From: a virus
Virus record (IMG/VR): IMGVR_UViG_3300009703_000014
Coordinates: 2,236-66,235 of that record
Strand: one strand, 5' to 3'
Length of the DNA: 64,000 bases
How positions within the stretch are numbered: position 1 is the first letter of the stretch; each line of letters opens with the position of its first letter. The translations under genes were made by a program, and so were the position numbers. The notes under the pieces were generated by a model, which saw only the letters and a program-made list of their open reading frames with translations, was not told the DNA's origin and did not search any database. This document shows, one piece after another, positions 2 to 60,134 of the stretch.

Positions 2-1858
2 ATAGCTTCTTTAATTACTCTTTTAATGACTGCTTTAAGAGGCGTTGAGCTTATTATATTATATTATGCAGCTACACATCTTTCTTTGATGCTGCATTAC
101 CGTAAAAAACTTGGGGGCCTCTTAATAAATGAGCTCTCCCTTTTATTAGATTTTATAGACGCTGTTAATAATGTCCTTGGAAATGATAATGCTTCTTGAA
201 CTGAAATAAGTGCGGCTTCTGAATATGTAAGGGCCGCGGAACTTCGAGTTGGTTTTGAGGTAGGGCGATATAATACCTCTAAAAGTATTAGTTTGAATAA
301 CATAAATAGAAGCATTGACTACATTGATTCTGCTAAAAATGCCTTATCTGGTGGGATTATGGAAGGTATAAAAAATGAGCTAAACAGCCTCCATGTTGAG
401 TCTGGGTTAGGGCCTTTAAATGATTATGTTTATGTAGATACTTGGCAAGGAATGTCTATCCCAAACTTCTCTGGATTCCAGTCTTACTTTAAAGACTTAA
501 AGGCTATAATAGCTGAAAAGTATGTGAGCAGTTTGCCGCCAGACGACCCTAATTATGAAGCAGACTCCTTAGCTAAAAAGCAGGCGCTGTTTGACTTTAT
601 TATGAAATTAATGCCCATGTTACCCAAGATCTTACAAGCACTTTTAATGACTAACATTGTAGAGCATGCCAGTGATACACTAATTGAAAAGCTCCCTATA
701 TTTATCGCTCTTAATAAAAAACAGCGTAAAAAGCTTAATAAAATGTTATCCCCACCAAACGCCGCAGAAGAAATAATGGATAGCTTAGAACCGGCACCAC
801 AACCTATATTTTTTACTGACCCTAAGACAAAAGACCTAACATATCAAACTGCGTTAACGGGTGTTAAGATAGCGGAAGCTGCTATCTTAATGTTTCCATC
901 TTACTGGAATTTTTTAAACCAAACAAGCTTTTTAGCTGGGACTTTTTTAAGACCAGCGCTTGATAAATTGAAGAGCATTAGACAGGATATGGGTGAGTGA
1001 GTGAGTGGTGAAAATCCAGGAGCTGACTCTATTTGAAAAGTTCAAGGTAAAAAAATAGCATGGACTACTAAGCTTTCTGCCATTAAAGGCCATCTACAAG
1101 TATTAGCGGGTAATGACTCTCTTAGCCAGTCCTTGGGAATAAATTCGACACAAGTTGCCGAAGAGGCTGACGATGCTTTAGAGAAACTTGACATATTAAG
1201 AGAAGCCATCACAAGTAGGCACGTACATGCTGATAAGTCCCCCAGAACAATCCCGGGAGATACTGCTTTTAATATAGCACAAAAATATTTGATAATGCTT
1301 AGCAGTGGAAGTGTTTTTTCTTTGTTTGGTAAGAATACACATGTGGTGGGCGGTATTCAAGGAGCAAGAATAGCCCTAAAAGCTCAAATGCAAGAAGACC
1401 AAGACCTTATAAATATATGCACTTCTTTTACAAAAGAAGTGGAAGAAATGACCACTTTTCCAGCAATTAAAAAAGCATTTGATGATATGCTAAAATCCCT
1501 AGAGGGGTCTGTAGCTGGAGGTTTGCTAAGCGACCTACAAAATGGAGACTTATCTAATTTAGTATCTCAACTTCAAAATGTGGCAGCCCTAAGTGAGATG
1601 GCTAACTTGCTATTTTGTTTAGGAGAGTACACAACGGGAATTTTTGCAGACCCACAAGCCCTTGCTTTAGGAACTTTTATGGGCGTGGACCTTCAAGATA
1701 AAAAAGAATTAGCGCAATTTAAAAGCTGATGGGCTTCAAAAGAAGCAACAATAGATAACTTAAAGGACCAGCAAGCCGTCTTAGCAGATACTACTCAAAT
1801 GGTAGAGTCTGCTATAGAAACTGCCTCTGGTTTAATGTCGTCAATGGAGACTGTATAA
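2..1858 (+). CDS. Hypothetical virion/tail-region protein, 5' end outside window (>618 aa with TGA=Trp)
   Basis: One frame from base 2 to TAA 1856-1858 joins ORF-track pieces 293-1000 and 1133-1729 through four TGA codons; followed by a GGAGG RBS for the next gene. Confidence 0.75.
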
Positions 1859-1870
1859 GGAGGCTTTATT

Positions 1871-2308
1871 ATGAGTTTAATAGATATACAATTAGTAGAT
1901 TTTTTAGAAGATAGCTCTTCTATTAGATTTCATTACCCTTTAGGAGGAAATGTTTCTGAAGGGACTAATAACTTGATTCAGATGTTAATAAAGCGTATAT
2001 TGACTATAAGGGGAAGCAATGAGCTTGAGCCTACCGTAGGAAGTAATTTTTATGGATTGTTTGGTACTATCAATTACCAGGAGGCGGAATCTATAAAAGA
2101 GAATTTTCCTCTTTTATTATCGAGCTTAGTAGAAAATATAAAACAGGAACAAACAGAGGCAGAACAGGAGAACTCCAGATTAGAGCCTTCTGAAAAGCTT
2201 AAGGACCTTACAATGCAGTCTGTCGTATATGATGACCTTTTAAGTGGATGAATCATACAATTAAAAGTAGAGACAGAAGCAAATCAATTTTTTGTAGTAA
2301 CTATTTAG
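1871..2308 (+). CDS. gp25-like baseplate wedge protein (145 aa, 1 TGA=Trp)
   Basis: LIQMLIKRILTIRGSNELEPTVGS resembles gp25-like proteins. Readthrough gives LLSGWIIQLKVETEANQFFVVTI and stops at TAG 10 nt before the baseplate J-like gene. Confidence 0.75.
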
Positions 2309-2318
2309 AGAGTATAAT

Positions 2319-5300
2319 ATGGCCACAAATATAAAAAATTTCATTATAGAACAGTTAAAAAGCGCAAACCCTGCTATGGACACTCGCCCTGGAAGTGTTC
2401 TGCGTGACTTACTTGTTAATCCCCTAGCGCTCGTTTTAGAGGGATACCAGCAAGATCATAAAAGAATGTTGGAGAGGCAGACTGTATCAAATATCGGCAG
2501 CTTATCTGAGGATGAGCTCGATGCCGTAGCTTCAAATTTCTTAATATCTAGAAATAAAGGGACTAAATCTACAGGCTATGTTCGCCTTTACTTCTCTTCT
2601 CCAAAAGCTTTTACTATACCTAAAGGAGCGCGGTTTAAAACTGCGGACGGTATACTATTTGAAACAACTTATGCTTTTACAGTATCCCGATTACAGATGG
2701 AGCAGAATACACTAGATTATCCTAACTATGATACAGGCCAAGTGCCTGTGCAATCTGTTCTTGAGGGTGCAAATACAAACATCCCTGCTAATAGTTCTTT
2801 TACCTCAACAGGGAGTTTGCCCTCCTCTCCTATAAAAATAAATAATACCGGTGCTTTCTACGGCGGGATTGAGAAAGAAACAAACGATAAGTTATATAAT
2901 AGGTTAGTAGATGCAGTAAATAATAAATCTTTAGCAGCCCCTACTGCCATTAAAAGCGGGATTAAGGACTTAATTTCAAGTGTGGTTGATGTGGACGTAA
3001 TAGGAGCCGGGCACCCTTTAATGGTTAGGGATTTAACAAATTTAGCGGAAACTGTGGCTAATTATAAATCACACGATTTTACCTATACTTACTCTGGGCT
3101 ACATAGCGGTGATTATGATAAAAAACATATGGCCCTAACTGGCCACTTTATTGACATAGATCCTACTGCCGATGTATCTTACCCAGAGGTTTCAGGGTGA
3201 AGTAAGGAGTTTTCTAATGACATGTATCAGGGGTTATATAATAAAACAGACCTGAGTTACGCAGAAGATTCGTCTAAAATTATTGTGCGGGAGTACTTTG
3301 AGGATTTACTGGATAATGAAGCCCCCCAGCAAGACCTGGCGTACTTAGCTACAAGCGGTGGGTGACAGTTTCATGACGGAGTTAATGGGAATAACCAGAT
3401 GTTCTACTTAGATGAGATTTCAGTATCTAATAATAAATTGCGGCTTGGAAAAACCCTGGATCCAACGAGTGTGGACGCCACCTTACAAATACCTTTAGCC
3501 ATGCTGTCAGGTATATATGATTTAGCAGGATCAGCTATCCAAGGAACTACGGAGGAGGCGATTAACCAGCTAGAGGATTTAATACAACCCAGCAACTTTA
3601 ATAATACGAGTCCAATCTTCCACAAACAAATTGACCAACATCTTGGAGTTAAACTTCAATGCGAAATATCTACAACTGATGGAACTGAAAACGGGGAAAT
3701 GTGTTATATAACGTTTTTAAGAAACTCTGAAAAATATTTGCCTCATGATGGGTATGGGTTGGGTTGGAGAAAGCAGCCGTCTTTCCTAATTAGGATAAAT
3801 AACAATACACATACTTCAGAGGATATTGCCCAATTTGTTGAGGAGTATGGAGTGACGGAGGAAGTAGCTTTAGGGTTGGTAGGGCAACTTTCTAATAGCG
3901 TAAATAAAAAATATTGGAAGTATAATATATACTTGGTAGATAATGACATTTTACAAGAAGAGGTTTGAATAGGACACGACATGCTTTGGGATCAAACTAG
4001 CGGACGTAACCAGTTTTTGCAAGCAGCTAAAACTTGAATAGAGCCTAACGAAACCTATAATGTTAAAATGAAATTATTTCCGCAGCTAGCATTCCAATGC
4101 TGGATTTGGAATAATGGGGTAACTTTTGATGATACCACACATCAGGTCTTAGACCGAGGCCAAACCTACCCTCCATATGTTCCAGTTTCTGGTGATGTTA
4201 AAACATACACAAGTGGATTAGAAAGTCTCGATGCAAATAGAAGTCATTTTGGTATAGCCGTAGCGCAGACTAGAAACTATATATGATCTTTTGATGATTT
4301 AGTTATTAATTCCTTTGTTGAAACCTTTCCCATGCATTTATTTAGATTTAAAGTGGACAGTACATATTTTAATCCAGGGAAGGACGCCACTTTTAGCTAT
4401 CATGGTGTAGGCTATGATCCTTTAGAGTATGCTATCGATAATAACACGGGCAATAGTAAGGTTAAGGTTGGAGTATATAACGAGGCTATGGGTGCTTGGC
4501 AAGACTTAGGATCGCATGAGTCTACGATCGATAGTGATCGCGCTACACAAAAAATTCAAAAGACTATTAGTCCTTTAGGTAATTATTTAGATTCTGAGGG
4601 GTTTGTTAACTTTGCTGCTACTCCTGCAAATTCTGGGCCAGGCTTTGAAGATAATGTGGAACACTCTTTACGTACCTACCATTGTGAAATAAATAATACA
4701 GCTATGGGAGGCATACATAGGGGCAATGCCGTAGATATCTATGTGCACGACCCTCAAAACACAGCCGTTGGAAGTGCCGTAATGACAATGGATAGCAGTG
4801 TTTTAAATGTATGGACTATGCCAGGCGTGTCAAGTTATATACAAGAAATATTGGAAGTAAGAGAATTTACATCCCAACTTTCTTTAGATAAGTCTACTTG
4901 GTCTCTGTCTTACTTAAGCGATGGAAATACTTACGGAGCGATGTCTCAGCCACAAATCACTTTTGATTTAGATAACATGTCGGGCACTATTATTGAAGTA
5001 GTTTATAGACATCTCACTTCTGGAACCTCTATTGCATCTTACTTAAGTAACCCTGATACTCGATACCCAGCAGCAGACCAAATGGTTAAAGTAATGCCCC
5101 CAGCTCGAATTAAAATTAATGGTTTAAAGTACGCAGGCGGTATAGATGAAGTAAATATGCGACAAGCTATAGCTACTTATTTTAATACTTTAGAAGATAC
5201 CTCTTTTGATAAGTCTGATCTAGTAAATCTTTTGTATGCTAATGGGGCTTCTTTTGTAGATTTAGATATGCTTATTTTTATATATCAGTACAATACAGAA

Positions 5301-5411
5301 GGAGTTCAGCAAATTATACCAATGACTGCACAGACTTACAAGATACCAATAACTACAATAGCAAGGTTTTTTTGTAGTGAGGGAGACTTACTAGGAGTAG
5401 AGCGTGTTTAA
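2319..5411 (+). CDS. Baseplate J-like wedge protein (1030 aa, 5 TGA=Trp)
   Basis: N-terminus DTRPGSVLRDLLVNP...LDAVASNF.ISRNKG.KSTGYV...IPKGARFKTADG is BpJ-like. ORF pieces 2319, 3399, 4068 and 4332 share one frame separated only by TGA. Confidence 0.85.
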
Positions 5412-7248
5412 TCCTAAAACTACAGCAAACTTTGACGCGCTCTGAGACAAGCTAGGTACGTTTTATACTCTTGTAGAGCCAGAAAGTAAAAAAATTATTC
5501 AAGATTATTGGGAGGCCTTATTTAACGGTTTGGAGGGCCTGCATTATGATTTAGCACAAGCACATTTAGTACCCTACTTAGAGCATTCAAGAGGTTACTT
5601 GGAAGATGCTTTTCAAGACCGAACTGTAATATTTGAAGGGTCTGAAAAAAATTGTGAATCAACTTACTATATGTCTCCTATAGGATCCGGATATTCAACA
5701 TCACCTGTTATAAGTGGAGCGTCCTACGAATATAAGGTTTCTTCTGTTTATAACTATGGATCCTCCATTGCCAGTCCTTCTTTTTTTGTAGGAAGCGCAG
5801 ATACTATAAGTGGCCTTACTTCAAACCCAATACAGTTGGAGTGGCCTAGTGTTTCGGGAGTAAGTCACTACAACATTTATGGGCGTTCTCCTGGCTTAAA
5901 ACCTGCTTTATTACATACTACTTCCGCCACTTCGTGAGTTGATAGTGGTATTGTCAGCCAGCCGCCCGAAGCTGATTATAAAGAAGAACACCCTATTTGG
6001 CCAGTTAAGGAGCATGCGGCAGTTAAAAACTTTATATATACGTTGACAGACACTGAACAATACTTGACTGTTCCTGTATTAAGTGGAATAAATACAGAAC
6101 AAACCTTACTGGAAAATGTGGACTACGAAGTGAATGCAACTACTAGATTAAAGTTTTTAAACCCAATACATAAAACCTTTTTAAAAGTATGGGAAGGAAG
6201 GGAAGACGCATCACATACATCCTACCAAACTGGCTCTTCTACTAAGTTTATTATACAAGGACAGCAGGCACCTGATTTACAATTAGTTAGGGGTATAAAA
6301 TATACCTTTGATTGTAGGGAGCTTTCTGAGACATTCACCATATATAGTGGTGTAGCAGATCCAATTAACACCGTCCTAGCTGATTCATCAGACAACTTAT
6401 TCAGCTTTATTCCAGATAATACTACGCCATCTACAATTTACTATGGGAGTACGAGTTTAAGCGGGATGGGTGATTCTATCACAGTTGTTGATTCGTTGAC
6501 AGATACTATACACATCGATGACTCACAAGTTTTGCTCTATAATGGGGCAGATTTTTTAATTCCCAGAGCTTATAAAATTTTACCTACTATCACAAATATA
6601 TACTTAAAAGGTTTAGGGGCAAAAGATCCTAAAGAGGTAATAAACTCAGAAATGTATCCTCCTTTTTTAAGTGGGTGATCCACAGAAGAAATATCTTATG
6701 AAGACAGACGTAAACTTTATGGGGACCACTTAAAGAATTGGTGCTATGCAATGTCAGCCATATCAAACCAGCCCCCTGCTCTGCATAACCTAGAAAACCT
6801 ATACTCACTAACAAAAGGATTTCCTTTTAGCTATCATCCTTGTATCGTAGAATCCCTAACCGTGAGTGGCGGCCTCTCGTATTTAAATACCTTGGGAGAT
6901 GAGGGATTTGCAGATATCTGCTACGCAATAGATAGCCAAATGTCTCTAAATTACGGCGTAGGGGACCATATTGACAAATTTTCTATATTAGTGTCTGGAA
7001 TTAATTTTTATGATAATGAAAAAAGCCCAGAAACTGTTAGTAGTATACTGGGTAGGGAGGGGGAAACATACGAGTTTGATGTGTATCCTAAGTGGATTAC
7101 AGCTACTACTTTAGAGCTGCATCCGTACCCTTCTGACTCTTCACACTTTATACGACCTAACACCCTGAGCAGCTCACTAGTTGATGAAGCTTTGTCTAAC
7201 GTGACTACAGAAGCGTCTGTATATATACCACCTGCGGAGGATATATAA
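5404..7248 (+). CDS. Baseplate/tail-associated structural protein (614 aa, 3 TGA=Trp)
   Basis: GTG start after GGAG; pieces 5530, 6043 and 6751 joined in frame by TGA; TAA overlaps the next ATG. Confidence 0.75.
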
Positions 7249-8162
7249 TGGCTGCCCCTATTTTACACATGCAGCAAAATAAGGAATATACAATAAACCA
7301 GTACCTCACGGATCATTTACTAATAATCGGGTCGGATGGGCTTGGGGGATCTGAAGACTTTACAAATGAGTTAGAGACAGGCCTTACTCATTATTATAAA
7401 ACTACGGAAGGGGTAAAACATTTAGGCCTTACTAATTGATCGGCTGATGACTTATGCTTCTATACTGGAGCTTCTAAAACAGCAGAGTCAATTAAAGTAT
7501 ATAGGTATAAAACTACTTTCACGCCGACAGAAGCTCATGGCGCAACTGTTTTTTATAAGTGCATTTTACACCCCAATGAGGGAGGGCAAATCAATATACT
7601 AGAGGGTCCGGGCGATGTAATAAATAGCGAAGAAATCCATTATTTATTAGGCATTCAACAAACAAATAGAACTTATGGAATTCCGCATAGCAGTGAAATA
7701 GCAGAAAACTTTTTAGCAAATAACATACCTGCCGGACTTTCCCCTAAACTTTTTAATTTTGCACCTCAAGTATCAGCACAGGTAGGCGATTCTCGGTGGT
7801 ATTCTCCTGCTACAGGAGATAATGAAATTTTACTTTCTGGCTTGATTGTTGACCCAGAAAACGATATATTAACATATAAGTGGTCACAAATTTTTCCAAC
7901 AGAGGGAGCTTTAACTGGCTTAGAGTTGATGGGGGAGTTTGCGGATGATACCGCATTAGAAACCACTTTTACAATCCAGTCAGGAGAAACTCCTCCGGTA
8001 GACACAGCTTACACTTTTAAGCTTACAGTGAGTGATTCGAATAATAGTGTGTCAGACACAATCGACGTTCTAGTATCTGGATTAGATACCTTTGACTTAT
8101 TCTCAGATACCGGGTTTGGTTTCTCAGATATAAACTTAACATTTGACTCTCTAGATAACTAG
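7248..8162 (+). CDS. Structural protein with C-terminal PKD/Ig-like domain (304 aa, 1 TGA=Trp)
   Basis: Continuous frame through TGA 7437; IVDPENDILTYKWSQ...YTFKLTVSD is typical of PKD/REJ-like modules. Confidence 0.7.
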
Positions 8163-8177
8163 AGTAGGAGACTATAT

Positions 8178-10202: not shown

Positions 10203-10212
10203 GGGATAAACA

Positions 10213-49712: not shown

Positions 49713-49715
49713 CAT

Positions 49716-50249: not shown

Positions 50250-50268
50250 GAAGTACCGGAGGAATATA

Positions 50269-51882: not shown

Positions 51883-52149
51883 TTATTTCTTCCTTCTAAG
51901 TATGCTTGAGGCTATGGGGGTCATACGCATCACGTGCCTATCAAACTTTAGTATAAACTTCGAGACTACATCATCCCTTTGTTTGTCTGTGAGTGGTGTA
52001 TCTTTTAAACTTGCATAAAGGATGTTTTTTATTTTTGATTCAAAAGCTCCTATCTCTGCATCAAAAAAGCTGTCATCAGGTATTAACTTTACTTTAGCAT
52101 CTTCTAACAACTTTTTTGCCACTTTTAGCTGTTCGTCTAAGGTACCCAT
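51883..52149 (-). CDS. Hypothetical protein (88 aa)
   Basis: ORF track; abutting neighbours. Confidence 0.65.
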   Translation of the reverse strand: MGTLDEQLKVAKKLLEDAKVKLIPDDSFFDAEIGAFESKIKNILYASLKDTPLTDKQRDDVVSKFILKFDRHVMRMTPIASSILRRKK

Positions 52150-52740
52150 TTATACTACAGACCTATGAAAGAAGAGGGAGTCTTTTCTATCTTTCCAGCT
52201 GCTTTTAACAGCTTTCCAAGACATTGCATGAGCAAATTTCCATCCTTCCTTTCCTAACTTTTCTAGAATGCCAAACTCAAAAGATTTGTCTAGTACAACC
52301 TCTTTCCATTCCCATTTACACTTCTGAAGTTCCTCTTTTAAAAAGTCTTTTACCTCTTTAGAGGACCCTTTAGTTCCATTCAAAATGCGCACTTCCTTGA
52401 TGGTGGGCACTTCCACAGGCACCTCAATAATCTTATCTGAATATACTGTTCTGGTAGGCATCTTAGCTTGTCCTGCTTGAGTAGCATCAATAATTACAGC
52501 TCTAGTCTCTGTACGAGCATACTTTTTACTGTTAGCTTTTTTGCGGGTTTTTCTAAGAAGTTTTTTTTGATTCTTTTTTTGTTCTTCGTCTTTTTCCATA
52601 AGTTTTAGATATCCGGCTGCTTTGGAAATACGAGTTTTAGTAGGCGTTTTTGCCAAGATGTCCTCTAAACTCATACCCTTCTTTTTCTGATCAACAGTCA
52701 TTCCGGCGTCTATCTCCTCTCTTGATCTACGTACTCTCAT
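52150..52740 (-). CDS. Basic hypothetical protein with DUF4177-like C-terminus (196 aa)
   Basis: KWEWKEV...LEKLGKEGW pattern. Confidence 0.6.
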   Translation of the reverse strand: MRVRRSREEIDAGMTVDQKKKGMSLEDILAKTPTKTRISKAAGYLKLMEKDEEQKKNQKKLLRKTRKKANSKKYARTETRAVIIDATQAGQAKMPTRTVYSDKIIEVPVEVPTIKEVRILNGTKGSSKEVKDFLKEELQKCKWEWKEVVLDKSFEFGILEKLGKEGWKFAHAMSWKAVKSSWKDRKDSLFFHRSVV

Positions 52741-52749
52741 AGTACCTCC

Positions 52750-52935
52750 TTACTTACTTCCTTGTATTTTTAAAATATGTGAAAATATATCGCTAATCGG
52801 CAAATCCGGGGCCATTGTTTGTTTTAAATCATCGCTTGCGTCTAGAAGATTTTTCATCGCTTTGTCCGTTTCTTTAATTGCTTCTTCTACTTCCTTAAGC
52901 ATCTTCTTCAGATTTTTGTCCTCTAATAAGTGCAT
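52750..52935 (-). CDS. Small coiled-coil protein (61 aa)
   Basis: ORF track. Confidence 0.5.
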   Translation of the reverse strand: MHLLEDKNLKKMLKEVEEAIKETDKAMKNLLDASDDLKQTMAPDLPISDIFSHILKIQGSK

Positions 52936-53188
52936 GTATTTCCTCCAGTTCTTTTGCTAAGTGTGCGTCTGCATGCGCTAGCCTATCTATTTCTAACAGG
53001 CTTTTTTCAGCGTTCTTGCATGTTGTTATTATTTCATGTAAAAGACCAAAAACATCTCTAACATCGGCGGTCGGGTTCTTGCTCATATAAGATGTCATTG
53101 CCGTGCCATAGTCTTTGATAAAGGCGTAGTATGGATGGTTTTCCACACTATCTCCTAAAAATCCTTTTGAAAAATCGTCTATATTCAT
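52895..53188 (-). CDS. Hypothetical protein (97 aa)
   Basis: ORF track. Confidence 0.6.
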   Translation of the reverse strand: MNIDDFSKGFLGDSVENHPYYAFIKDYGTAMTSYMSKNPTADVRDVFGLLHEIITTCKNAEKSLLEIDRLAHADAHLAKELEEIHALIRGQKSEEDA

Positions 53189-53190
53189 TG

Positions 53191-53799
53191 TTACTCCAAA
53201 ATGCTATCTACAATGCCGTGCTCTACTGCTTGCTCGGCTTCTAGATATAAGTTTACTCTTGCATTACTTTCCCAGTATTCAGCTGTTTTTGTGCAGCACT
53301 TCTCTAATAAGTCATACATTTTAATTTGTAATTTTTTAATGTGAGCCGCTTCCGTTACAATATCCCTACTTGTCCCCGATAATAGGGTAGAAAGCTCATG
53401 TACCATTATTATGGAGTTTCGGGTGATTGCTCTTGTGCCTGTTCCTGCAGCTAATATAAAGGCAGCTGCTGACATTATAGGGCCCCTGCCTAGGGTATTG
53501 ATTTTTACGGGTGCTGCTTGAAGTACGTCTATCGCCGCAAACATTCCGTAAACGTCACCGCCGTAAGAAGTGACCTCTAAAGTAATAGGATCGTCTTCCC
53601 TCTTAGGGTCTAGTGTCCTAATAACGTTGATACGGGATTTTATAAATCCCGCCGTATATATGTCAATTTCGTCTTCTAGATAAATGATCCTATTATCTAG
53701 ATCGACCGCGTAATCTATCTGTGCCAGTGCGTTTGTAGGGGATGCTTTGTTAGAACCAAGTAAGCTTCCCAAATCTCGTGTATTTTGTGTATCGGGCAT
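53191..53799 (-). CDS. clpP: ClpP-family protease subunit (202 aa)
   Basis: RIIYLEDEI, TSYGGDV, catalytic Ser in IMSAAAFILAAG, His in IMVHE. Confidence 0.85.
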   Translation of the reverse strand: MPDTQNTRDLGSLLGSNKASPTNALAQIDYAVDLDNRIIYLEDEIDIYTAGFIKSRINVIRTLDPKREDDPITLEVTSYGGDVYGMFAAIDVLQAAPVKINTLGRGPIMSAAAFILAAGTGTRAITRNSIIMVHELSTLLSGTSRDIVTEAAHIKKLQIKMYDLLEKCCTKTAEYWESNARVNLYLEAEQAVEHGIVDSILE

Positions 53800-53813
53800 A
53801 TCCTGCTCCTTTT

Positions 53814-54194
53814 CTAAGTTATTTTATTTAAGATTGTTTCTGTGTTCTTTAATATTTTCTGTAAAGCTTTTAAATTATGCGCCATCACTTCATAAGTAAT
53901 CATACTTAAGGGGTCTTCGTCTACAGTAAATAAGTCTACTAGAGAGTATCGGTTCCCTTTAGAGTCATCTATTACCATGAGAGCGCCTTCACCGTCTTTT
54001 AAAGGTTTAATTCCCCGAGATTCAATAAACTTATGTAATTTATGTAAATCTTTATCCGTACTGGGCGTAGAATAAGAATATAAGGTTTGTGAGGATGCCG
54101 GCGTTGACGGATCCCAGGCTAGTGTCGCAGTGCTTGTTGTTACATTGTATTCTAAGCTTGAGGTGTCTGTGTGTACTTTATCTGAGTTTTTCAT
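53814..54194 (-). CDS. Hypothetical protein (126 aa)
   Basis: ORF track. Confidence 0.6.
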   Translation of the reverse strand: MKNSDKVHTDTSSLEYNVTTSTATLAWDPSTPASSQTLYSYSTPSTDKDLHKLHKFIESRGIKPLKDGEGALMVIDDSKGNRYSLVDLFTVDEDPLSMITYEVMAHNLKALQKILKNTETILNKIT

Positions 54195-54483
54195 TTAAAA
54201 AAAGTGGTTTTGGTTTTTTATGCTTCTTTTCTAAAGATAGTATATAAAGGTCCCAGTCTTTAACTGGATCAGCGGGGTTAGTTTGAACATGCTGATGGGC
54301 CTTTCGTCTAGGTTTAATTAATTTTGTATTATAAAAAAAGTGCCTAGAAAGCCGTTTATTGCTCACAATCTTAGTAACATTGCTGGCTTTTTTAATTGCT
54401 TTTTCTTTACTTACTTTATATGCATTTTCTTCGTTTCTTGTCAAAAGTACAGAAAACGCTATAACTATTAAGAGTGGTTTCAT
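54178..54483 (-). CDS. Hypothetical protein (101 aa)
   Basis: ORF track; hydrophobic N-terminus. Confidence 0.55.
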   Translation of the reverse strand: MKPLLIVIAFSVLLTRNEENAYKVSKEKAIKKASNVTKIVSNKRLSRHFFYNTKLIKPRRKAHQHVQTNPADPVKDWDLYILSLEKKHKKPKPLFLNEKLR

Positions 54484-54512
54484 GCTACCCTTTCCTTTAA
54501 TATAAGTTTAAA

Positions 54513-54713
54513 TTACTCTGAGGGCAAGTCTTCAAACTCGCCCTCTTCTATAAGCTCTAGAACTACTACAGAATTTTTGCCCCTCACTATGAGAGGTTCA
54601 GGCCTATTGGAGGCAGTCCACACTTTTTTTAAGTGTGCTGTATCTAAAGTAGGCGTATCTGGATATTCTTTCAGGACTTTATATGCCTTATCTTGGAATT
54701 TGAAAATACGCAT
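54513..54713 (-). CDS. Hypothetical protein (66 aa)
   Basis: ORF track. Confidence 0.55.
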   Translation of the reverse strand: MRIFKFQDKAYKVLKEYPDTPTLDTAHLKKVWTASNRPEPLIVRGKNSVVVLELIEEGEFEDLPSE

Positions 54714-55158
54714 TTTTCCACCTCCCTGCCATATATAACATAAGCTCTGTAGAAGGCTTTTTACTTGATCTTTTACTTAACACTCTTAAATACTTTAAAG
54801 TCCAAATCCTGTCTAAAAAAGTTTTCTTACTGAATCTGGTATTGAAGTATTTTAAGTCGCTTTCCATGCAGTCTACCACCTCCACTTTATACCCGCAATC
54901 TCCTGCCTTTTGTATAGAGTCTTCGTATAACAAAGGGTCTTCGTTTGGGGCGTCTACAATAATTAAGGGGGTGCTTCTGTCTATCTCTTTACTTACTCTT
55001 TTATAAAACGTTGAATATGCGCTAAGCAGTCTTGTTTTATTCTTTGGGTAAGTGAAAGTCATAATTTTCGCACTGGTAGACCCCTGTTCAACCAGCCCTT
55101 CTGCTACTGTTGTTTTTCCGGTTCCCGGAAGCCCTTTTAAAATTATAAATTTAGCCAT
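54688..55158 (-). CDS. P-loop kinase, AAA_33/PNK-like (156 aa)
   Basis: IILKGLPGTGKTT, IIVDAPN. Confidence 0.75.
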   Translation of the reverse strand: MAKFIILKGLPGTGKTTVAEGLVEQGSTSAKIMTFTYPKNKTRLLSAYSTFYKRVSKEIDRSTPLIIVDAPNEDPLLYEDSIQKAGDCGYKVEVVDCMESDLKYFNTRFSKKTFLDRIWTLKYLRVLSKRSSKKPSTELMLYMAGRWKNAYFQIPR

Positions 55159-55202
55159 GTTAACTCCTATTTTATGTTAAGTATTTAGTTTCTATTACTT
55201 CT

Positions 55203-55212
55203 TTCTTATACC
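55203..55212 (-). promoter_or_regulatory. GGTATAAGAA promoter-like motif (one of 7 copies)
   Basis: Exact TTCTTATACC on + at 42923, 55203, 56347, 59639, 61460, 61874, 63744; six are intergenic and upstream of minus-strand units. Confidence 0.65.
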
Positions 55213-55224
55213 TATTTTGAAGGT

Positions 55225-55252
55225 AAAAAAAAGGGAGCAAGGCTCCCTTTTT
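55225..55252. terminator. Intrinsic terminator
   Basis: A8-GGGAGC-AAG-GCTCCC-T5. Confidence 0.8.
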
Positions 55253-55267
55253 AAATTACTACCAAAA

Positions 55268-55684
55268 TTAAAAGACGCGGAGATTGCCGCCTCTGAAACC
55301 TCTGTTGTTGCCGGGGGTCCATCCTGATCGCGGCCCCGTTGCGAAGTATCCCTTAGTGGAATAATATTTCCAAGGATGTGACTTAACCGTCCCTGTTTTC
55401 CCGACTGTCGATACTACTAACTTTTTCGACGTGAGTATATTCATCACTCGTTTTTGGTTTACTTTGGTTAACTTTCCCAAGCCTGTTTGTGAAAGTAGTA
55501 CACATACCCACTTTCCTCTAACGATAACTTCGATCGCGCGCAGAGCTTTGTAATTGTTAAAATGTTCTTTGATTTGTCCTGCCAATAAGGCAAGACTAGC
55601 GGCTGTTTCAGCACTGCCCTTTGTGCCATTTGTAATAGCATTTGGGCGTATGAAAGTCGCTTTTCCTATAGTCAACGTTTTCAT
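55268..55684 (-). CDS. Basic hypothetical protein (138 aa)
   Basis: ORF track; its ATG overlaps the upstream gene's TGA (ATGA). Confidence 0.65.
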   Translation of the reverse strand: MKTLTIGKATFIRPNAITNGTKGSAETAASLALLAGQIKEHFNNYKALRAIEVIVRGKWVCVLLSQTGLGKLTKVNQKRVMNILTSKKLVVSTVGKTGTVKSHPWKYYSTKGYFATGPRSGWTPGNNRGFRGGNLRVF

Positions 55685-55896
55685 TGTTTTTGTTTTCCTA
55701 TTTTATACTGTTTTCCCGATAATAAGCTTACAAGTAGGCCTATGCCAGCGGCTTGAAAAAATGACACCCGAGTAAAGCTGCTAACATCAGGTATTACAAA
55801 ATTCCAAAGCCACATAATTAGGAGTGACCTAATTAAGAAGGCGCCTAAAAAGATGCCTATCGGTAGTAGAGTTTTTACTGCTTTTATTGTTTTCAT
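55681..55896 (-). CDS. Small membrane protein (71 aa), ends on TGA
   Basis: Two hydrophobic helices; ATGA overlaps at both ends. Confidence 0.65.
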   Translation of the reverse strand: MKTIKAVKTLLPIGIFLGAFLIRSLLIMWLWNFVIPDVSSFTRVSFFQAAGIGLLVSLLSGKQYKIGKQKQ

Positions 55897-56141
55897 ATTT
55901 TCTTTTTCTTTGTTAATCTCAATCCCAAGTCATCTAAATAACCTGCTTTCTCCATTATCTCTGGAAGAAGTTTTTTTAAAAATTCCCAGCGCTCAGTGTG
56001 CTCGTTTAACTCTTGAACTATCTGATTAATACGGGGAATTATAATGTCCGCCTTCTTCTCGCTTGATCTTATTTTCTTTATCATTTTTTCTCTTTTCTTC
56101 CCTCCGTAAATAGTCACCGACACCTGTGGCAGTCGGGGCAT
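55893..56141 (-). CDS. Hypothetical protein (82 aa), ends on TGA
   Basis: ORF track; ATGA overlap with the next gene. Confidence 0.55.
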   Translation of the reverse strand: MPRLPQVSVTIYGGKKREKMIKKIRSSEKKADIIIPRINQIVQELNEHTERWEFLKKLLPEIMEKAGYLDDLGLRLTKKKKI

Positions 56142-56307
56142 TAGAGGTTTCTACTACCTTGGGGTAGTATTTAAGTTTCTCGTTTTTCTTCACACAGCGA
56201 GAGATAAACAATGCCTCCTCTTTTGAAGGGTAAATCCCTTTCAAAACACAACATGTGCCGTATTGGCTTTGTTCGTAATTGATTACTGCGTAGTTTATTT
56301 TACTCAT
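56026..56307 (-). CDS. Hypothetical protein (93 aa)
   Basis: ORF track; overlaps previous ORF, boundaries uncertain. Confidence 0.45.
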   Translation of the reverse strand: MSKINYAVINYEQSQYGTCCVLKGIYPSKEEALFISRCVKKNEKLKYYPKVVETSNAPTATGVGDYLRREEKRKNDKENKIKREEGGHYNSPY

Positions 56308-56349
56308 AAGAGTCCTTTATTTATTTTAAAAAAATATCCATCAGTATTC

Positions 56350-56760
56350 TTATACCATAAAAATATATTTTTTGGCTTTCTGTACGGCAAAGCTAAACCC
56401 TATGGTACGCTGCATGGTTATATGTTGGGTGAGTCCTATGTTTTCTAATATAGTCGAGGTGGGTAAATCTTTTAATTCTAAGGGAGTTAATGTCTTTAAA
56501 TAGAGGTGGAGTACATATAGCATTCCTTTTACAAACTGAGATTCCGAATCTATGTGTGTGTGTACTTTGTTGTTTTGTATGAAGGTGTGTAGGTAAGACA
56601 CAGAGGCACACCCTTGGATTAGGGTGTGCTCGTCTCTGTGTTCGGGGGGATATACTGGGGCCGCCTTGGACAGCTCCAATAAGTATAAAAGTTTATGTTT
56701 GCCTTGTAAACTGGCTAACATTTTAATGTGTTCATTTAGTGTGTCTTTGTTTTTCATCAT
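56350..56760 (-). CDS. sufE: SufE-family Fe-S metabolism protein (136 aa)
   Basis: LIQGCAS, DSESQFVKGML, LTQHITMQRTIGF match the SufE pattern. Confidence 0.75.
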   Translation of the reverse strand: MMKNKDTLNEHIKMLASLQGKHKLLYLLELSKAAPVYPPEHRDEHTLIQGCASVSYLHTFIQNNKVHTHIDSESQFVKGMLYVLHLYLKTLTPLELKDLPTSTILENIGLTQHITMQRTIGFSFAVQKAKKYIFMV

Positions 56761-56764
56761 ATTG

Positions 56765-56852
56765 CTGGAGCAGAAGGAATCGAACCCCCATGGACTTGTT
56801 AAATCCGCTACCTAAACAGGGTAGTGCGTCTGCCAAATTCCGCCATACTCCA
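56765..56852 (-). tRNA. Atypical tRNA-Asn(GUU) with long variable arm
   Basis: Acceptor TGGAGTA/TGCTCCA plus G73; Leu-like D arm GCGGAATTTGGCAGACGC; anticodon arm CTACC-CT[GTT]TA-GGTAG; variable stem GGATTT/AAGTCC; T loop TTCGATT. Confidence 0.7.
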
Positions 56853-56865
56853 ATTTAATCCTATT

Positions 56866-57897
56866 CTAATGTGTTTCTAACCATTCTTTTTCTTCTTTCA
56901 TACCTTGAACTGACCAACCATCCCAATATCTTTCGTGAGATAACTCTGTATTTAAATATTCAAGTCTTTTTTCGGCTTGTTTTCTTGACGCTGGTTTTTC
57001 TTTATTCATTCTATTTCCTATCCATTTTTCTAAATCCATAGTAGGCTTCCAATCAAAACATTCCATCATCTGGCTACTATCGAGTAATGTTTCTTTGGGT
57101 TCTACTCTTGGTGGGATATTTGTTGTTTCACCGCCTATCCATTCTGCTATCTGATTAACAGAATAATTTTTACCATACCCTACATTTAATGTTGCACCTA
57201 TAAGTGGGCTCTCATAAAAAGCAACTTGTATATTAGCCTCAACTATATCACCAACATAAATAAAATCTCTTCGTTGTTCTCCATTCCCAACAATAGTTAA
57301 CTTTTCACCTTTAGCTTTTTGCTGTTCAAATATTCCCATCACATTACAATAAGCACCTTCTGTCGGTTGACCCTCACCATACGCATTTGAATATCTTAAA
57401 CATACAGTTGACAAATCATATAAATCTGAATACATTTTACAATATTGTTCATTCATCAATTTATTTAATGCATATGGACTCATTGGGTCAGTCTTCATAC
57501 TCTCGTGAGTTGGTATTTTAGCTTCTCCATATACCGCTGATGAAGATGTCAAAACAACTCTCTTAACCTTATGTTCTCTACAAAACTCTAACAAATGAAT
57601 TGTTGTATTTACATTCATATTATGTGAATGTAATGGTTGCTCTATTGATGGTTCAACTCTTGGAAATGCGGCTAAATGAAAAACTATTTCTGGTATCTTA
57701 TTCATTTTTTCTAAGCGTCTTCCCCAAAATTCCATATCTTGTACATCTGCACTTATATAAGTACACCCATCTTGCTCATTACCTCTTCTACCGCTACTAT
57801 AGTTATCAATAGAAACTACCTTGTGACCATCTTTCAATAATCGTGTAACTATATGTGTTCCTATAAAACCTGCACCACCAGTAACTAAACATCGCAT
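56866..57897 (-). CDS. NAD-dependent sugar epimerase/dehydratase (extended SDR) (343 aa)
   Basis: VTGGAGFIG, FHLAA, SSSAVYG, YALNK (YxxxK), LRYSNAYG, RDFIYVGD. Confidence 0.9.
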   Translation of the reverse strand: MRCLVTGGAGFIGTHIVTRLLKDGHKVVSIDNYSSGRRGNEQDGCTYISADVQDMEFWGRRLEKMNKIPEIVFHLAAFPRVEPSIEQPLHSHNMNVNTTIHLLEFCREHKVKRVVLTSSSAVYGEAKIPTHESMKTDPMSPYALNKLMNEQYCKMYSDLYDLSTVCLRYSNAYGEGQPTEGAYCNVMGIFEQQKAKGEKLTIVGNGEQRRDFIYVGDIVEANIQVAFYESPLIGATLNVGYGKNYSVNQIAEWIGGETTNIPPRVEPKETLLDSSQMMECFDWKPTMDLEKWIGNRMNKEKPASRKQAEKRLEYLNTELSHERYWDGWSVQGMKEEKEWLETH

Positions 57898-57898
57898 T

Positions 57899-58801
57899 TT
57901 AAGGTAATAATCCTTGTAATTTCATAGCTCTTACCATTCTAGTTACGCCAATACCTCCACCAAATCTATCAAACATATTTAAGGATAGATACTCTTCCAA
58001 TTCATCTTCAACTCTTTTTCTACCAAAGTGATTGAACAATAAATTGGCATATTCACCATCTGAAATTGTGTGGAACTGATGCCGCATTTCTGAAACATTT
58101 GAACTTCTTTCAGCACTTCCAATTGTTTCCATTCCGTGCATTATAACGTCTACCTTATGAAACAGGTCAGGGTCAACGCTGCTTTGTTTCATATTCCAGA
58201 ACGGATGTGTTCTTTGTGGAAAATGCGTTAAGAAGGTACAGTCTGTATAGTCACTACAAAGTTTTTCTTCCTCATCTACATCTAGTTCAGAAACAGCATA
58301 CTTAGTAGCCGCATCGTTGTATTTAATATTTGAAAAATCGAGACTTTCCCCGAAACCTAGGTGGGTTAGTAACTCCTCTTCAAGCTTGATCATATCAGTC
58401 ATATCTCCATGAGATTCAAACTCAAACATGGGGAAGATCTTGTCATGTCTACCCGGGATTGGGTTAGGCTCATTTCTATATGAGGTTGTTATGCAAAACA
58501 CTCCTTCTACTTCTGGGTTTTCTAAAAGCTCTCGTTCTAGCCACATTTGCCCTGTCTGTGGCAGTGGCCAATTCGTTCCGCCAAAAATATATTGTGAAAT
58601 TGTTGCTGGGTCCTCGCAAGCTGCTAGTATTGACTGTCGTGATTGGGCTGGAACTTCGACAAATCCTTTTGCTTCTTGAAAAAAGAAGCGCATCTTTTTT
58701 ACTACTTCATTATATTCATACATATTTTTCAAAGTATTTATTTTCTCCTTGTGTACCCATAAGGGGTAGTCATTGTTATAGTGCTGCCCTCGTAAGGACA
58801 A
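57899..58801 (-). CDS. Truncated AsnRS/AspRS paralogue (archaeal-type asparagine synthetase-like) (up to 300 aa)
   Basis: Class II motif 2 SYRNEPNPIPGRHDKIFPMFEFE and motif 3 RFGGGIGVTRM; no anticodon-binding domain; start may be later. Confidence 0.75.
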   Translation of the reverse strand: MSLRGQHYNNDYPLWVHKEKINTLKNMYEYNEVVKKMRFFFQEAKGFVEVPAQSRQSILAACEDPATISQYIFGGTNWPLPQTGQMWLERELLENPEVEGVFCITTSYRNEPNPIPGRHDKIFPMFEFESHGDMTDMIKLEEELLTHLGFGESLDFSNIKYNDAATKYAVSELDVDEEEKLCSDYTDCTFLTHFPQRTHPFWNMKQSSVDPDLFHKVDVIMHGMETIGSAERSSNVSEMRHQFHTISDGEYANLLFNHFGRKRVEDELEEYLSLNMFDRFGGGIGVTRMVRAMKLQGLLP

Positions 58802-59121
58802 GCTATAGTCGGTATTGTATCAGTTGCAACTTTTGTTTTACTTCTTAGTTGCTGTGGCTTTTTACCGTCAAGCCGTATATATATTCTAATTTTACTGTCA
58901 TCTTCTATATCCGGTTATTGTTTCTAGTACCCATGTTAATGCCCTTAAAAGGGATATGCCTGCGTACAAGCATCAGAGGTATAAAGTTGATATTAAGCGG
59001 GCCAATAAGCGTTTAATCAATGCTATTGGTGTGTTCTTCTTCTGCATATATTTTACTAAAAAATTTTTCATTTAAAAAAAGTGGTTTATTGTTTGTAAGT
59101 TTTCTGTTAAATACAGACCAG

Positions 59122-59194
59122 TGACCCGAGAGCGGCTCGAACGCTCGACCCACTGCTTAAAAGGCCGTTGCTCTACCTGCTGAGCTATCGGGTC
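59122..59194 (-). tRNA. tRNA-Lys(UUU)
   Basis: GACCCGA/TCGGGTC acceptor, GCTC/GAGC D stem, CT[TTT]AA loop, TTCGAGC T loop. Confidence 0.9.
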
Positions 59195-59198
59195 AATA

Positions 59199-59272
59199 TG
59201 GTAGCGGGGCCGGGAATTGCACCCGGGACTCAGGCTTATGAGGCCTACGTTTTACTACTTCACTACCCCGCA
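59199..59272 (-). tRNA. tRNA-Met(CAU) (initiator-like 1:72 mismatch; Ile2 not excluded)
   Basis: TGCGGGG/CCCCGCT acceptor plus encoded ACCA; TAGGC-CT[CAT]AA-GCCTG anticodon arm. Confidence 0.85.
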
Positions 59273-59276
59273 TTTA

Positions 59277-59610
59277 TTGTGGAGACGGCGAGAGTCGAAC
59301 TCGCGTCTTGAAAAACTCTATATAAAAGTCATTCACAAGCTTATCCAGTTGCTCTTCTTCTGGCAAGTCAGCTTAACTGTTCTTATTTAATGTGTCGTAG
59401 TTATAGCAACCAACATCTGATTTACTGTTTTCTCAGGGTCTTTCCGATATGATGTCGCTACCTCTTATCGGAGTAGGAGGGCGACAGGCTGCATATTACT
59501 ACGCTGCCATTGCGTAACTGTTGCCAATTGAAATTGACGTTTGTTTTAACGTGTATACTCACGGCTTGCACTTCTATACGATATTTCCCAATCGAAACCA
59601 AAACGTCCCC
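59277..59610 (-). ncRNA. ssrA: tmRNA, tag peptide (A)GNSYAMAA
   Basis: 5' GGGGACG pairs with 3' CGTCTCC (G3.U70); T arm GCGAG-TTCGACT-CTCGC; tag ORF GGC AAC AGT TAC GCA ATG GCA GCG TAG TAA at 59525-59496. Confidence 0.9.
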
Positions 59611-59768
59611 ATTTAAAAATATAGTTTGCTGCGCTTTTTTCTTATACCTTTTTTGTGAGGGTTTTCACAAAGTATGCCTAGTAAATAAAAAAATTTTGCG
59701 TTAACAATAAAAAAAGTATATACTTAAATATAAGCATTTTAAACTTAAAAAGCCAGGGAGGTATCACA

Positions 59769-60134
59769 ATGTTTAAAAAAATATTTATTAGTTTATTGTT
59801 AGTTTGTTTTGGCGGGGCCGAAGCGGGGGAATGCGCCGAGCAGCCTATTAATGTTTGATTTAAAGTATCTAATGATATAAACGCAGCAAACTATGGCGAG
59901 GCAGTAGCCCTGGACATGCGGGAGGGCGCAAGTTTTTTAAACGGTGACTGGTTTTGTATAGCAGTTAAAGACCTAAATACCGGGGAAGATGTTATAGTGT
60001 CTTTTCCTATAGCAGGGTATTGGGCTGCCCCCTCACCTAAAAGCCTTACAGACTTGGAGAAGGAAATGATGACTTTAGAAGAATATCTACGAAGAACTTA
60101 CAACAAGTCTACTGAATTAAAGCGAGCTAAGTAA
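59769..60134 (+). CDS. Secreted hypothetical protein (121 aa, 1 TGA=Trp)
   Basis: Signal peptide MFKKIFISLLLVCFGGAEA is in frame with the 59916 piece only through TGA 59856. Confidence 0.7.

Follow-up and report, generated by a model that had tools for sequence, protein, structure and literature searches.

TGA is read as tryptophan (Trp) genome-wide in Mycoplasma and Spiroplasma, where RF2 has been lost. Within phages, block-wise dual codes were reportedly noted in the crAss-like group by Yutin et al. in 2021. The genomes of crAss-like phages were described as alternating between blocks with reassigned opal or amber codons and blocks in the standard code (Mgcod preprint, 10.1101/2022.06.29.495998). 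For the TGA-recoded gut phages Agate, Jade, and Sapphire, a switch of code between early and late genes was proposed (Borges et al., 10.1101/2021.08.26.457843; Nat Microbiol 2022). Phages AP1 and HF2 encode TrpRS:tRNA-Trp(UCA) pairs, with a G73 discriminator in AP1 (Seki et al. 2025, PMC12636597), and 13 phage tRNA(UCA) molecules all inserted Trp in an E. coli extract (PMC12636597). For only 35% of TGA-recoded phages has a suppressor tRNA been detected.

The stretch analyzed here (the window, 64,000 nucleotides) is part of IMG/VR virus record IMGVR_UViG_3300009703_000014, which derives from a subsurface and not a gut metagenome. The contig is about 35% complete, the whole phage genome probably measuring roughly 200 kb, and a complete recoded relative of 210 kb (G001) was used as genome-wide comparison. 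Four recoded genomes (the window, G001/L006, L020, and L021) were set beside four syntenic standard-code loci (L004, L007, L009, and L010), and the comparison shows that recoding arose within a clade that otherwise keeps to the standard code. Among GenBank phages, megablast with 24 kb gave no match, and the RNA polymerase (RNAP) has only distant relatives there (~30% identity). The baseplate wedge found no match in IMG/VR, and the two proteins richest in TGA (616 and 1097 aa) are orphans, their homologue searches being empty. A host search through the epimerase revealed no close relative among genomes; the 3' end of the tmRNA matches many phyla, and its full-length comparison gave no host. The features of the window are as follows:

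2..33182, plus strand: recoded structural/lysis block with baseplate, tail fibres, endolysin, head genes, and portal (PHROG matches; 57 sense TGA)
27142..27237, plus strand: suppressor tRNA, anticodon UCA (ARAGORN)
27256..27858, plus strand: endolysin (amidase; PHROG 1493)
33571..42595, minus strand: block free of sense TGA, with glycosyltransferase, endonuclease VII, GP88, RT-like polymerase, and ATPase (0 TGA, 31 TGG)
42923..42932, minus strand: exact copy of GGTATAAGAA, one of eight in the window
42948..51012, plus strand: second recoded block, with fused beta-beta' RNAP, OGFOD1/Tpa1-like 2OG oxygenase, a 177-aa ORF, and PhoH (9 TGA)
51049..58801, minus strand: block free of sense TGA, with ClpP-like protease, SufE, sugar epimerase, and others (includes ORF 55681-55896)
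59121..59610, minus strand: tRNA-Lys, tRNA-Met, and phage tmRNA (tmRNA at 59277-59610), preceded by GGTATAAGAA at 59639-59648
59769..60134, plus strand: isolated and doubtful 121-aa ORF containing 1 TGA, which sets the end coordinate of the original prediction
60656..63685, minus strand: genes free of sense TGA, running on past the window to the contig end

The first gene of the structural/lysis block begins outside the window, 300 bases upstream, and genes within this block meet at 1-base TAATG junctions, never at ATGA. The endolysin likely starts at the ATG at 27256; its two early TGA are codons 54 and 60 of a longer ORF starting at 27208, and both stand opposite TGG or TGA in relatives. No homologue was found for ORF 59769-60134.

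Distribution and meaning of in-frame TGA

Under table 4, 33 plus-strand ORFs contain 67 in-frame TGA and 101 TGG and end at TAA (27) or TAG (6), never at TGA, whereas 25 minus-strand ORFs of at least 80 aa contain no TGA and 80 TGG (Fisher test, p = 2e-14). The structural/lysis block holds 57 of the 67, the RNAP block 9 (four of them in the fused polymerase of 2024 aa), and the doubtful ORF one. When table 4 is applied to the plus strand only, greedy tiling yields a coding density of 0.93 with 85 ORFs, up from 0.83 with 112; the minus strand gains nothing from that table. The original prediction had thus counted well by hand (roughly 65-70 plus-strand TGA; about 25 minus-strand genes with about 80 Trp codons, all TGG), and its claim that reading TGA as Trp restores the plus-strand genes was borne out. 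Strand composition cannot account for the partition, because Lys, Glu, and Gln codons end in A equally often on both strands (0.61-0.69); the TGA share among Trp codons, 0.41, lies under this range. The most conserved head genes have almost no Trp codons, and most TGA are found in fast-evolving tail genes. For the base that follows a sense TGA, the window has no clear bias (p = 0.48), and in G001 the bias is weak (p = 0.013); neither result provides evidence on RF2 competition.

Homologues support Trp as the meaning of these codons. A standard-code relative of 59% identity carries TGG at all four TGA positions of the RNAP, and 36 of 48 pairwise TGA alignments to standard-code IMG/VR relatives fall on TGG, the remainder mostly on Tyr or Leu. 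Against G001, 16 of 25 window TGA align on TGG or TGA, which does not differ from the window's own TGG (26 of 43 on Trp codons; p = 0.80), while other residues fall on Trp codons of G001 at 0.25% (contrast with TGA, p = 2e-33). Recoded relatives also swap TGA and TGG at identical columns. Particular sites named in the original prediction agree: the RNAP residues W964 and W1054, predicted from GTQ[W]SHI and NEEY[W]R, are TGG in four of four aligned relatives and also in G001, and oxygenase W163 aligns with W of human OGFOD1 and yeast Tpa1. For the predicted "collar" site (tail fibre aa 560) no homologue spanning it was found, and in PhoH and the amidase the TGA sites lie in parts unconserved in, or unaligned with, distant PDB homologues.

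The original prediction had divided the codes by strand. Strand and TGA class do coincide in this 35%-complete fragment, and Trp-encoding TGA in minus-strand genes elsewhere, which would have told against the division, did not appear in G001, where 51 minus-strand ORFs of at least 200 aa contain no internal TGA and 214 TGG. However, a G001 plus-strand block at 154-165 kb has no TGA and 36 TGG, against 122 TGA and 195 TGG in the remaining long plus-strand ORFs (p = 1e-7). What separates the two kinds of gene is therefore module or transcription class, not strand.

Nine minus-strand genes end at TGA, seven of them outside the window toward the contig end. Such stops occur only at start-codon overlaps (eight ATGA and one ATGACTGA); none is free-standing, and readthrough would mostly add just 3-11 codons. 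No ATGA stop-start overlap occurs in the plus class. The two overlaps predicted at 55681 and 55893 are both real and flank the 71-aa minus-strand ORF 55681-55896, which shares ATGA with its neighbours at both ends. It is thereby supported that the minus-strand genes were written for a translation state in which TGA is a stop. The predicted standard code of this strand holds insofar as TGA stops exist, but they exist only at overlaps, and the genes are more aptly called TGA-poor and readable in both states than wholly "standard code".

The 10-mer GGTATAAGAA, judged by its positions, looks like a promoter. Its other window copies start at 38894, 55203, 56347, 59639, 61460, 61874, and 63744, and each of the eight has minus-strand orientation. 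A minus-strand start or RNA gene follows six of them at a distance of 29-59 bases, the distance being greater for those at 38894 and 42923. Neither the 9 copies of the whole contig nor the 20 of G001 include one on the plus strand, a restriction that may be counted as support for the minus-strand modules forming a separate transcription class. K-mer counts brought out no promoter motif for the plus strand.

The suppressor tRNA(UCA) and its variable arm

A tRNA(UCA) occupies the syntenic place in four of four recoded genomes and is absent from all four standard-code loci, and the sister phages without it lack sense TGA altogether. It is thus a real and conserved gene that co-occurs with recoding. 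Its cloverleaf shows covariation at 10 of 28 pairs among four homologues. The acceptor stem has 7 bp, with A1-U72, G2-C71, G3-C70, and discriminator G73; G73, A1-U72, and G3-C70 are constant in the four homologues, pair 2-71 is G-C except in one homologue, which has G-U, and pairs 4-7 covary. G73, A1-U72, and G2-C71/G3-C70 constitute the identity set of bacterial tRNA-Trp (PMC9976931), and the same elements occur in G001's own tRNA-Trp(CCA). The CCA anticodon and the short class I variable loop of a tRNA-Trp are lacking, and so is C34, a major TrpRS determinant (PMC9976931). The anticodon arm is nearly identical to that of the G001 tRNA-Ser(UGA), whose acceptor (G1-C72, G2-C71, A3-U70) is unlike that of tRNA(UCA). 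The best Rfam match is the tRNA-Sec model (RF01852), at 42.2 bits under its 47-bit cut-off; a bacterial tRNA-Sec, which would combine an 8-bp acceptor with a 5-bp T stem, was rejected on this score and on the 7-bp acceptor, to which a U(-1)-G73 pair could at most be added as an option. From codon positions only, we infer that tRNA(UCA) is charged with Trp. An HDV-like (theta) ribozyme was sought beside the tRNA and not found.

The long variable arm (~26 nt) consists of a 5-bp stem and the loop UUUCCAAAC, which copies the anticodon loop of tRNA-Trp (N-U-CCA-A-A). This pattern is solid across viral tRNAs: UCCAA occurs within the variable region of 60 unique viral tRNA(UCA), with G73 in 59 and A1-U72 in 48 of them, and 55 of 57 unique variable regions present UCCAA in the loop of a hairpin of at least 4 bp, on 53 different stems. 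No paper describing a tRNA(UCA) with such an arm was found in the literature. As a tentative reading, somewhat doubtful as it stands, the arm might display an anticodon-loop copy by which host TrpRS, which needs C34 and C35, would still recognise a UCA tRNA, and the code switch of this lineage, as well as that of many other TGA-recoded phages, may rest on this design. If true, this variable-arm decoy would make a phage TrpRS needless; the architecture offers a testable idea for how host TrpRS accepts an opal suppressor, and may explain the 35% detection rate of suppressor tRNAs.

Genes for RF1, RF2, and TrpRS, which the original prediction had proposed to seek in the rest of the genome, were not found in the contig, nor were RF1, an anti-RF2 factor, or TrpRS found in the complete G001. 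Apart from tRNA(UCA), the lineage has no recognisable code-change gene, and, having no phage TrpRS, it would therefore rely on the host enzyme. The OGFOD1/Tpa1-like oxygenase was considered as a readthrough helper acting through ribosome modification and rejected, its own gene needing TGA suppression and G001 having no homologue.

Two proposed translation states and competing explanations

Proceeding from these observations, it is likely that the window belongs to a lytic phage of about 200 kb with two successive translation states. Early in infection of what would be a standard-code host, the host machinery would read TGA as a stop through RF2, and the modules without sense TGA, in this fragment all on the minus strand and sharing the promoter-like 10-mer, would be expressible. 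Later tRNA(UCA), encoded within the structural/lysis block, would be made, be charged with tryptophan, presumably by host TrpRS, and rival RF2, so that the 66-67 TGA at Trp positions would no longer block translation of the virion, lysis, and RNA-polymerase genes. A regulatory benefit, for example the withholding of lysis and virion proteins, may follow. Against this reading, no RF1, anti-RF2 factor, or TrpRS by which suppression might beat RF2 was found here or in G001. The ClpP-like "head maturation protease" sits in a block without sense TGA, which counts against a late/early split.

Broken plus-strand genes, whether pseudogenes or assembly or sequencing errors, have nothing in their favour apart from the stops themselves and are refuted for practical purposes: every stop within the frames is a TGA, with TAA and TAG absent, homology is continuous across TGA (the RNAP falls in a single 2027-column alignment), and the pattern recurs in three independent assemblies. 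A residue other than Trp at TGA, be it Gly (code 25), Ser (from the class-II tRNA body), or selenocysteine, could be read from the long variable arm and G73, as in tRNA-Ser and tRNA-Sec, and from the Ser-like anticodon arm and best-scoring tRNA-Sec model. Yet the acceptor stem is of Trp type and not Ser type, and 20 of the 25 TGA columns in the G001 alignments hold Trp or an aromatic residue, none holds Ser, and a single one holds Gly, within an alignment of 22% identity. A code 25 phage of Gracilibacteria or Absconditabacteria would have Gly there, and the original prediction would likewise have failed had the columns been mainly Gly or random. For selenocysteine, the 7-bp acceptor and sub-cut-off score weigh against it, and 67 such codons without SECIS are implausible; this whole set of residues is extremely improbable.

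A phage uniformly in code 4, with a host reading TGA as Trp and minus-strand genes devoid of TGA by chance, would accord with TGA stops that are not strictly required, given the short readthrough. It would place sense TGA in all classes and leave no TGA stops, but none of the 80 minus-strand Trp codons is TGA where about 0.65 x 80 are expected from the shared A-over-G bias, the 51 long G001 minus-strand ORFs agree, and the ATGA overlaps, eight in number, all belong to the minus class. The phage moreover has its own tRNA(UCA), and sisters without that tRNA show no sense TGA, making this explanation very unlikely. Strand-specific TGG-to-TGA mutation, with suppression throughout infection and no temporal switch, agrees with the perfect coincidence of class and strand in the fragment, with TGA being commonest in fast-evolving tail genes, and with a TGA share below the A-ending share, as ongoing drift predicts. 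It is nonetheless unlikely, as the third-position A-over-G bias is equal on both strands, the G001 plus-strand block is free of TGA, and minus-strand genes stop at TGA. Under the preferred reading of two translation states, much of the pattern could still have arisen by neutral drift from TGG to TGA under available suppression and not by designed regulation, because TGA lies mostly in fast-evolving tail genes and the conserved head genes are nearly without Trp codons.

Comparison with known recoding systems

The case is one of late-gene stop-codon recoding of the Borges et al. and Mgcod kind in a new, non-gut lineage, and the early/late precedent invoked by the original prediction matches the pattern. 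As in the Borges phages, TGA codons for Trp cluster in the structural and lysis genes, whose full length is recovered by sense reading (57 + 9 TGA), and these codons align to one amino acid (16/25 in G001, 36/48 in standard-code relatives), while other modules are compatible with the standard code (25 window and 51 G001 ORFs, nine TGA stops). Also alike are the phage-encoded suppressor tRNA(UCA) for the recoded stop (4/4 recoded, 0/4 standard-code), the close relation of recoded and standard-code members, and the dispersal of recoded modules over the genome in large phages. Unlike them, this lineage is subsurface, has no GenBank megablast match, and carries a fused beta-beta' RNAP, and the Jade-type RF1/TrpRS "code change operon" is absent even from the complete G001.

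The crAss-like phages share the split into reassigned and standard-code blocks, but the window phage has baseplate-wedge genes and a multisubunit-type fused beta-beta' polymerase, from which the crAss-like virion polymerase differs. With Mycoplasma and Spiroplasma code 4 it has in common a tRNA with anticodon UCA that reads UGA as Trp; it differs in keeping TGA as a stop in a whole gene class and in owning the tRNA. The AP1 and HF2 tRNA(UCA) likewise serve Trp at UGA, with G73 in AP1 as here, but are paired with a phage TrpRS, which this lineage lacks.

Standard gene callers fragment about half of the contig's coding capacity, and its database proteins are therefore probably broken. TGA-to-Trp recoding of late genes is extended from gut phages to large subsurface phages with a fused beta-beta' RNA polymerase, and recoded and non-recoded sister genomes provide a natural contrast in which the difference is one tRNA.

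Gene content and the distribution of TGA codons

The virus record is linear, 73,364 bp long (bases 2236-66235 forming the window, with 38% GC) and about 35% complete by the CheckV estimate. The tested stretch was present in full in one subsurface metagenome run, which may be its source, and 7% of its sampled words occurred in a second run; no nucleotide-level match to the tested contig DNA was found among GenBank phages. Its genes include:

plus strand: structural and lysis block (baseplate wedge, tail fibres, amidase endolysin, head genes, portal)
42948-49022, plus strand: fused beta-beta' RNA polymerase, 2024 aa, with four sense TGA
49035-49712, plus strand: 2OG-Fe(II) oxygenase, closest solved relatives OGFOD1 and Tpa1
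plus strand, order of the second block: RNA polymerase, OGFOD1/Tpa1-like 2OG oxygenase, 177-aa ORF, PhoH
minus strand, in the window: glycosyltransferase, endonuclease VII, GP88-family protein, RT-like polymerase, ATPase, ClpP-like protease, SufE, sugar epimerase, three tRNAs, tmRNA
minus strand, beyond the window: UvdE, phosphoesterase, PNKP-type phosphatase, thioesterase

The RT-like "polymerase" (300 aa; 38350-39252, minus strand; PHROG 2825/1423) is kept in all relatives, and a GC-rich non-coding region lies near it at 35.6-36.8 kb.

ORF sets were obtained by simple tiling, not with a trained gene finder. In the 33 plus-strand ORFs read with table 4 there were 67 in-frame TGA and 101 TGG codons and no stops at TGA, versus 0 TGA and 80 TGG in the 25 minus-strand ORFs of at least 80 aa (p = 2e-14), as the original prediction had described. 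When coding density was compared by table with greedy tiling, the gain was likewise confined to the plus strand: from 83% (112 ORFs, table 11) it rose to 93% (85 ORFs) with table 4 on the plus strand alone, and applying table 4 to the minus strand left it unchanged. Base composition was rejected as the cause of the partition, because both strands prefer A over G to the same extent at the third position of Lys, Glu, and Gln codons (61-69%); with free use of TGA, this preference would make about 50 of the 80 minus-strand Trp codons TGA, and none was observed.

Sense TGA also occurs in G001, a complete relative phage of 210,208 bp that is syntenic with the window and itself recoded, where a plus-strand ORF of 2588 aa holds 32 TGA and the terminase eight. 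Minus-strand sense TGA was not found elsewhere: the 51 minus-strand ORFs of at least 200 aa in G001 had 214 TGG and no internal TGA (four TGA lay within their last 15 codons), and the contig beyond the window added minus-strand TGA stops without any sense TGA. The minus-strand TGA-Trp use that the original prediction had named as a refuting outcome did not turn up in either. The proposed strand-partitioned code thus holds in the window, where the minus strand has no sense TGA, but fails as a rule, since a G001 plus-strand block at 154-165 kb (nine ORFs, including two sulfotransferase-like proteins and an endonuclease) contains 0 TGA and 36 TGG, versus counts of 122 and 195 for the remaining long ORFs on that strand (p = 1e-7). 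This TGA-free block argues that the partition follows module and not strand.

Two plus-strand genes at the start of the contig are also without TGA. One of them, a 240-aa ORF upstream of the window without Trp codons (positions 1215-1937 of the contig, L002), heads the recoded structural block and gave a weak match to sigma-70 region 3 (24.8 bits, cut-off 25.3); it may encode a late sigma factor that could be made before the proposed code switch.

TGA as tryptophan and as stop

Window proteins were aligned with those of L001, a standard-code relative, and of fifteen IMG/VR loci found through their portal protein. The L001 polymerase (59% identity) has 15 TGG and no TGA, and carries TGG at all four positions where the window polymerase has TGA, in agreement with the conserved Trp sites predicted there. 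Across the whole set, seven of the nine alignable TGA positions were Trp columns; by pairs, 36 of 48 were TGG, the rest being mainly Tyr or Leu in more distant sequences. In the oxygenase, the TGA-encoded W163, also predicted to be conserved, has a Trp counterpart both in OGFOD1 of human and in Tpa1 of yeast.

Comparison with G001, where 25 of the 67 window TGA positions could be aligned, gave 16 Trp codons (14 TGG, two TGA), four Tyr/Phe codons, and five others that fall within low-identity stretches. The Trp fraction in G001 was similar for window TGA (64%) and window TGG (26/43; p = 0.80), versus 0.25% at all other residues (p = 2e-33), and TGA and TGG were found to swap at equivalent sites between the window and its recoded relatives in both directions. 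Gly appeared once and Ser never at the aligned TGA columns, and both code 25 (TGA = Gly) and a serine reading were therefore rejected. By these alignments, TGA in the recoded genes is best read as tryptophan.

Nine minus-strand genes in the whole contig end at TGA, eight in ATGA start-stop overlaps, including the two named in the original prediction (55681 and 55893, flanking a 71-aa ORF at 55681-55896), and one in a ATGACTGA overlap. No free-standing TGA stops were found, minus strand included; on the plus strand no gene has a TGA start-stop overlap, the tight junctions being TAATG. If these stops were read through, eight of the nine genes would be extended by 3-11 codons and the ninth by 87. 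On these sequence grounds, the minus-strand class is most aptly regarded as readable in either state, with TGA as stop or as Trp. The RNA polymerase, with its four sense TGA, could be made solely when TGA is read as Trp, which suggests a late, possibly virion-packaged enzyme; its relatives among GenBank phages, at about 30% identity, include those of Vibrio phages D181, D148, and D69.

A suppressor tRNA(UCA) with a long variable arm

ARAGORN detected a candidate suppressor tRNA, flanked on one side by two small, conserved ORFs without TGA and on the other by the endolysin:

27142-27237, plus strand: suppressor tRNA, 96 nt, anticodon UCA

Its best Rfam model is tRNA-Sec (42.2 bits, under the 47-bit cut-off). 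Homologues occupy the syntenic place in G001 (locus L006) and in the metagenome contigs L020 and L021, in all of which the structural block is recoded and opposite-strand genes are TGA-free; none was found in the syntenic standard-code relatives L004, L007, L009, and L010. Compensatory changes affect 10 of 28 base pairs, including three within the long variable arm. G73, A1-U72, and G3-C70 are identical in the four homologues; at pair 2-71, L020 has G-U and the other three have G-C, and pairs 4-7 covary. G73, A1-U72, G2-C71, and G3-C70 are bacterial Trp identity elements (PMC9976931), which are also present in the G001 tRNA-Trp(CCA) and not in its tRNA-Ser genes. Thirteen of 13 tested phage tRNA(UCA) inserted Trp in E. 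coli extract (Seki et al., PMC12636597). In G001, 25 canonical tRNA genes, including tRNA-Trp(CCA), lie on the minus strand at about 98-108 kb, and the tRNA(UCA), located in the late block, is the only one on the plus strand.

A search for RF1, RF2, and TrpRS genes, suggested with the original prediction, found none in the contig or the complete G001, nor any class-Ib synthetase gene. The idea that the tRNA "gates" the lysin did not hold across recoded relatives, since the two early TGA of the endolysin (27256-27858) vary among them: L020 has TGA at both sites, L021 at one, and G001 has TGG at both. Stop-codon readthrough is influenced by OGFOD1 and Tpa1, which hydroxylate prolyl residues of ribosomal proteins; the 2OG oxygenase has no homologue in G001, and is thus probably outside the core recoding machinery.

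The core of the tRNA-Trp anticodon loop, UCCAAA, recurs in the loop of the variable arm, and this hexamer is invariant across the four homologues on a covarying stem; the 7-mer UUCCAAA is the anticodon loop of the G001 tRNA-Trp(CCA). In an IMG/VR scan, 66 contigs combined the anticodon loop with UCCAAA and a T-loop, spaced as in class-II tRNAs. When UCCAAA was dropped from the pattern as a control, the matches, pooled with the first-scan loci, gave at least 100 unique long-arm tRNA(UCA)-like sequences. Among the matches listed, 60 of 100 unique sequences carried UCCAA, a rough share because both scans follow the same scan order; of these, 48 had A1-U72, 59 G73, and 57 a perfect 7-bp acceptor stem, and the other 40 look like genuine tRNA-Sec. 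UCCAA lay in the loop of a hairpin of at least 4 bp in 55 of 57 unique variable regions, with 53 different stems, and shuffled flanks reached 4 bp in about one quarter of trials. The commonest loops were GUCCAAA (17) and CUCCAAA (16), the latter being identical to the loop that bears the anticodon in E. coli tRNA-Trp. Median coding density of the flanks rose from 0.765 to 0.881 under table 4 (TAG-sense control, 0.802). The family is widespread and viral, with about 60 unique sequences among the IMG/VR matches listed (loci L153-L275). We hypothesize that the long variable arm serves TrpRS recognition. No description of such an anticodon-loop copy was found in the literature searched, which is not proof of novelty.

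An 89-nt tRNA-Asn(GUU) (56764-56852, minus strand) is a second tRNA of class-II shape; its variable arm is long and its position 37 is a pyrimidine, whereas the Asn isotype normally belongs to class I.

The minus-strand class and known recoded phages

The 10-mer GGTATAAGAA has nine exact copies in the contig and 20 in G001, every one of which is on the minus strand. This section concerns:

38894, 42923, 55203, 56347, 59639, 61460, 61874, 63744, minus strand: the eight window copies of GGTATAAGAA
59277-59610, minus strand: phage tmRNA (Rfam, 108 bits; not detected by ARAGORN)

For six of the eight window copies, a minus-strand start codon or, once, the tmRNA follows 29-59 bases downstream. This strand bias and placement fit a separate promoter class, and the motif is likely a promoter of the TGA-free genes. 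The tmRNA, also encoded in G001, directly follows a GGTATAAGAA motif and precedes tRNA-Met and tRNA-Lys; its tag, read by eye, ends in YAMAA followed by UAG UAA. One might speculate that it relieves ribosomes reading through host UGA stops late in infection.

Several features of the contig, known here from its sequence, are common to recoded phages described by Borges et al. (10.1101/2021.08.26.457843), in which TGA-recoded phages use the alternative code in structural and lysis genes, often not in replication genes, encode suppressor tRNAs, have close standard-code relatives and, in large phages, show multi-module recoding. The code switching that the original prediction took as reported corresponds to the mid-infection switch proposed by these authors as a hypothesis. 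Phage genomes in blocks of different codes, opal reassignment included, were described in the Mgcod preprint, so this type of recoding was already known. The new elements are the habitat, the lineage, the lack of RF and TrpRS helper genes in a complete relative and, perhaps, the design of the tRNA.
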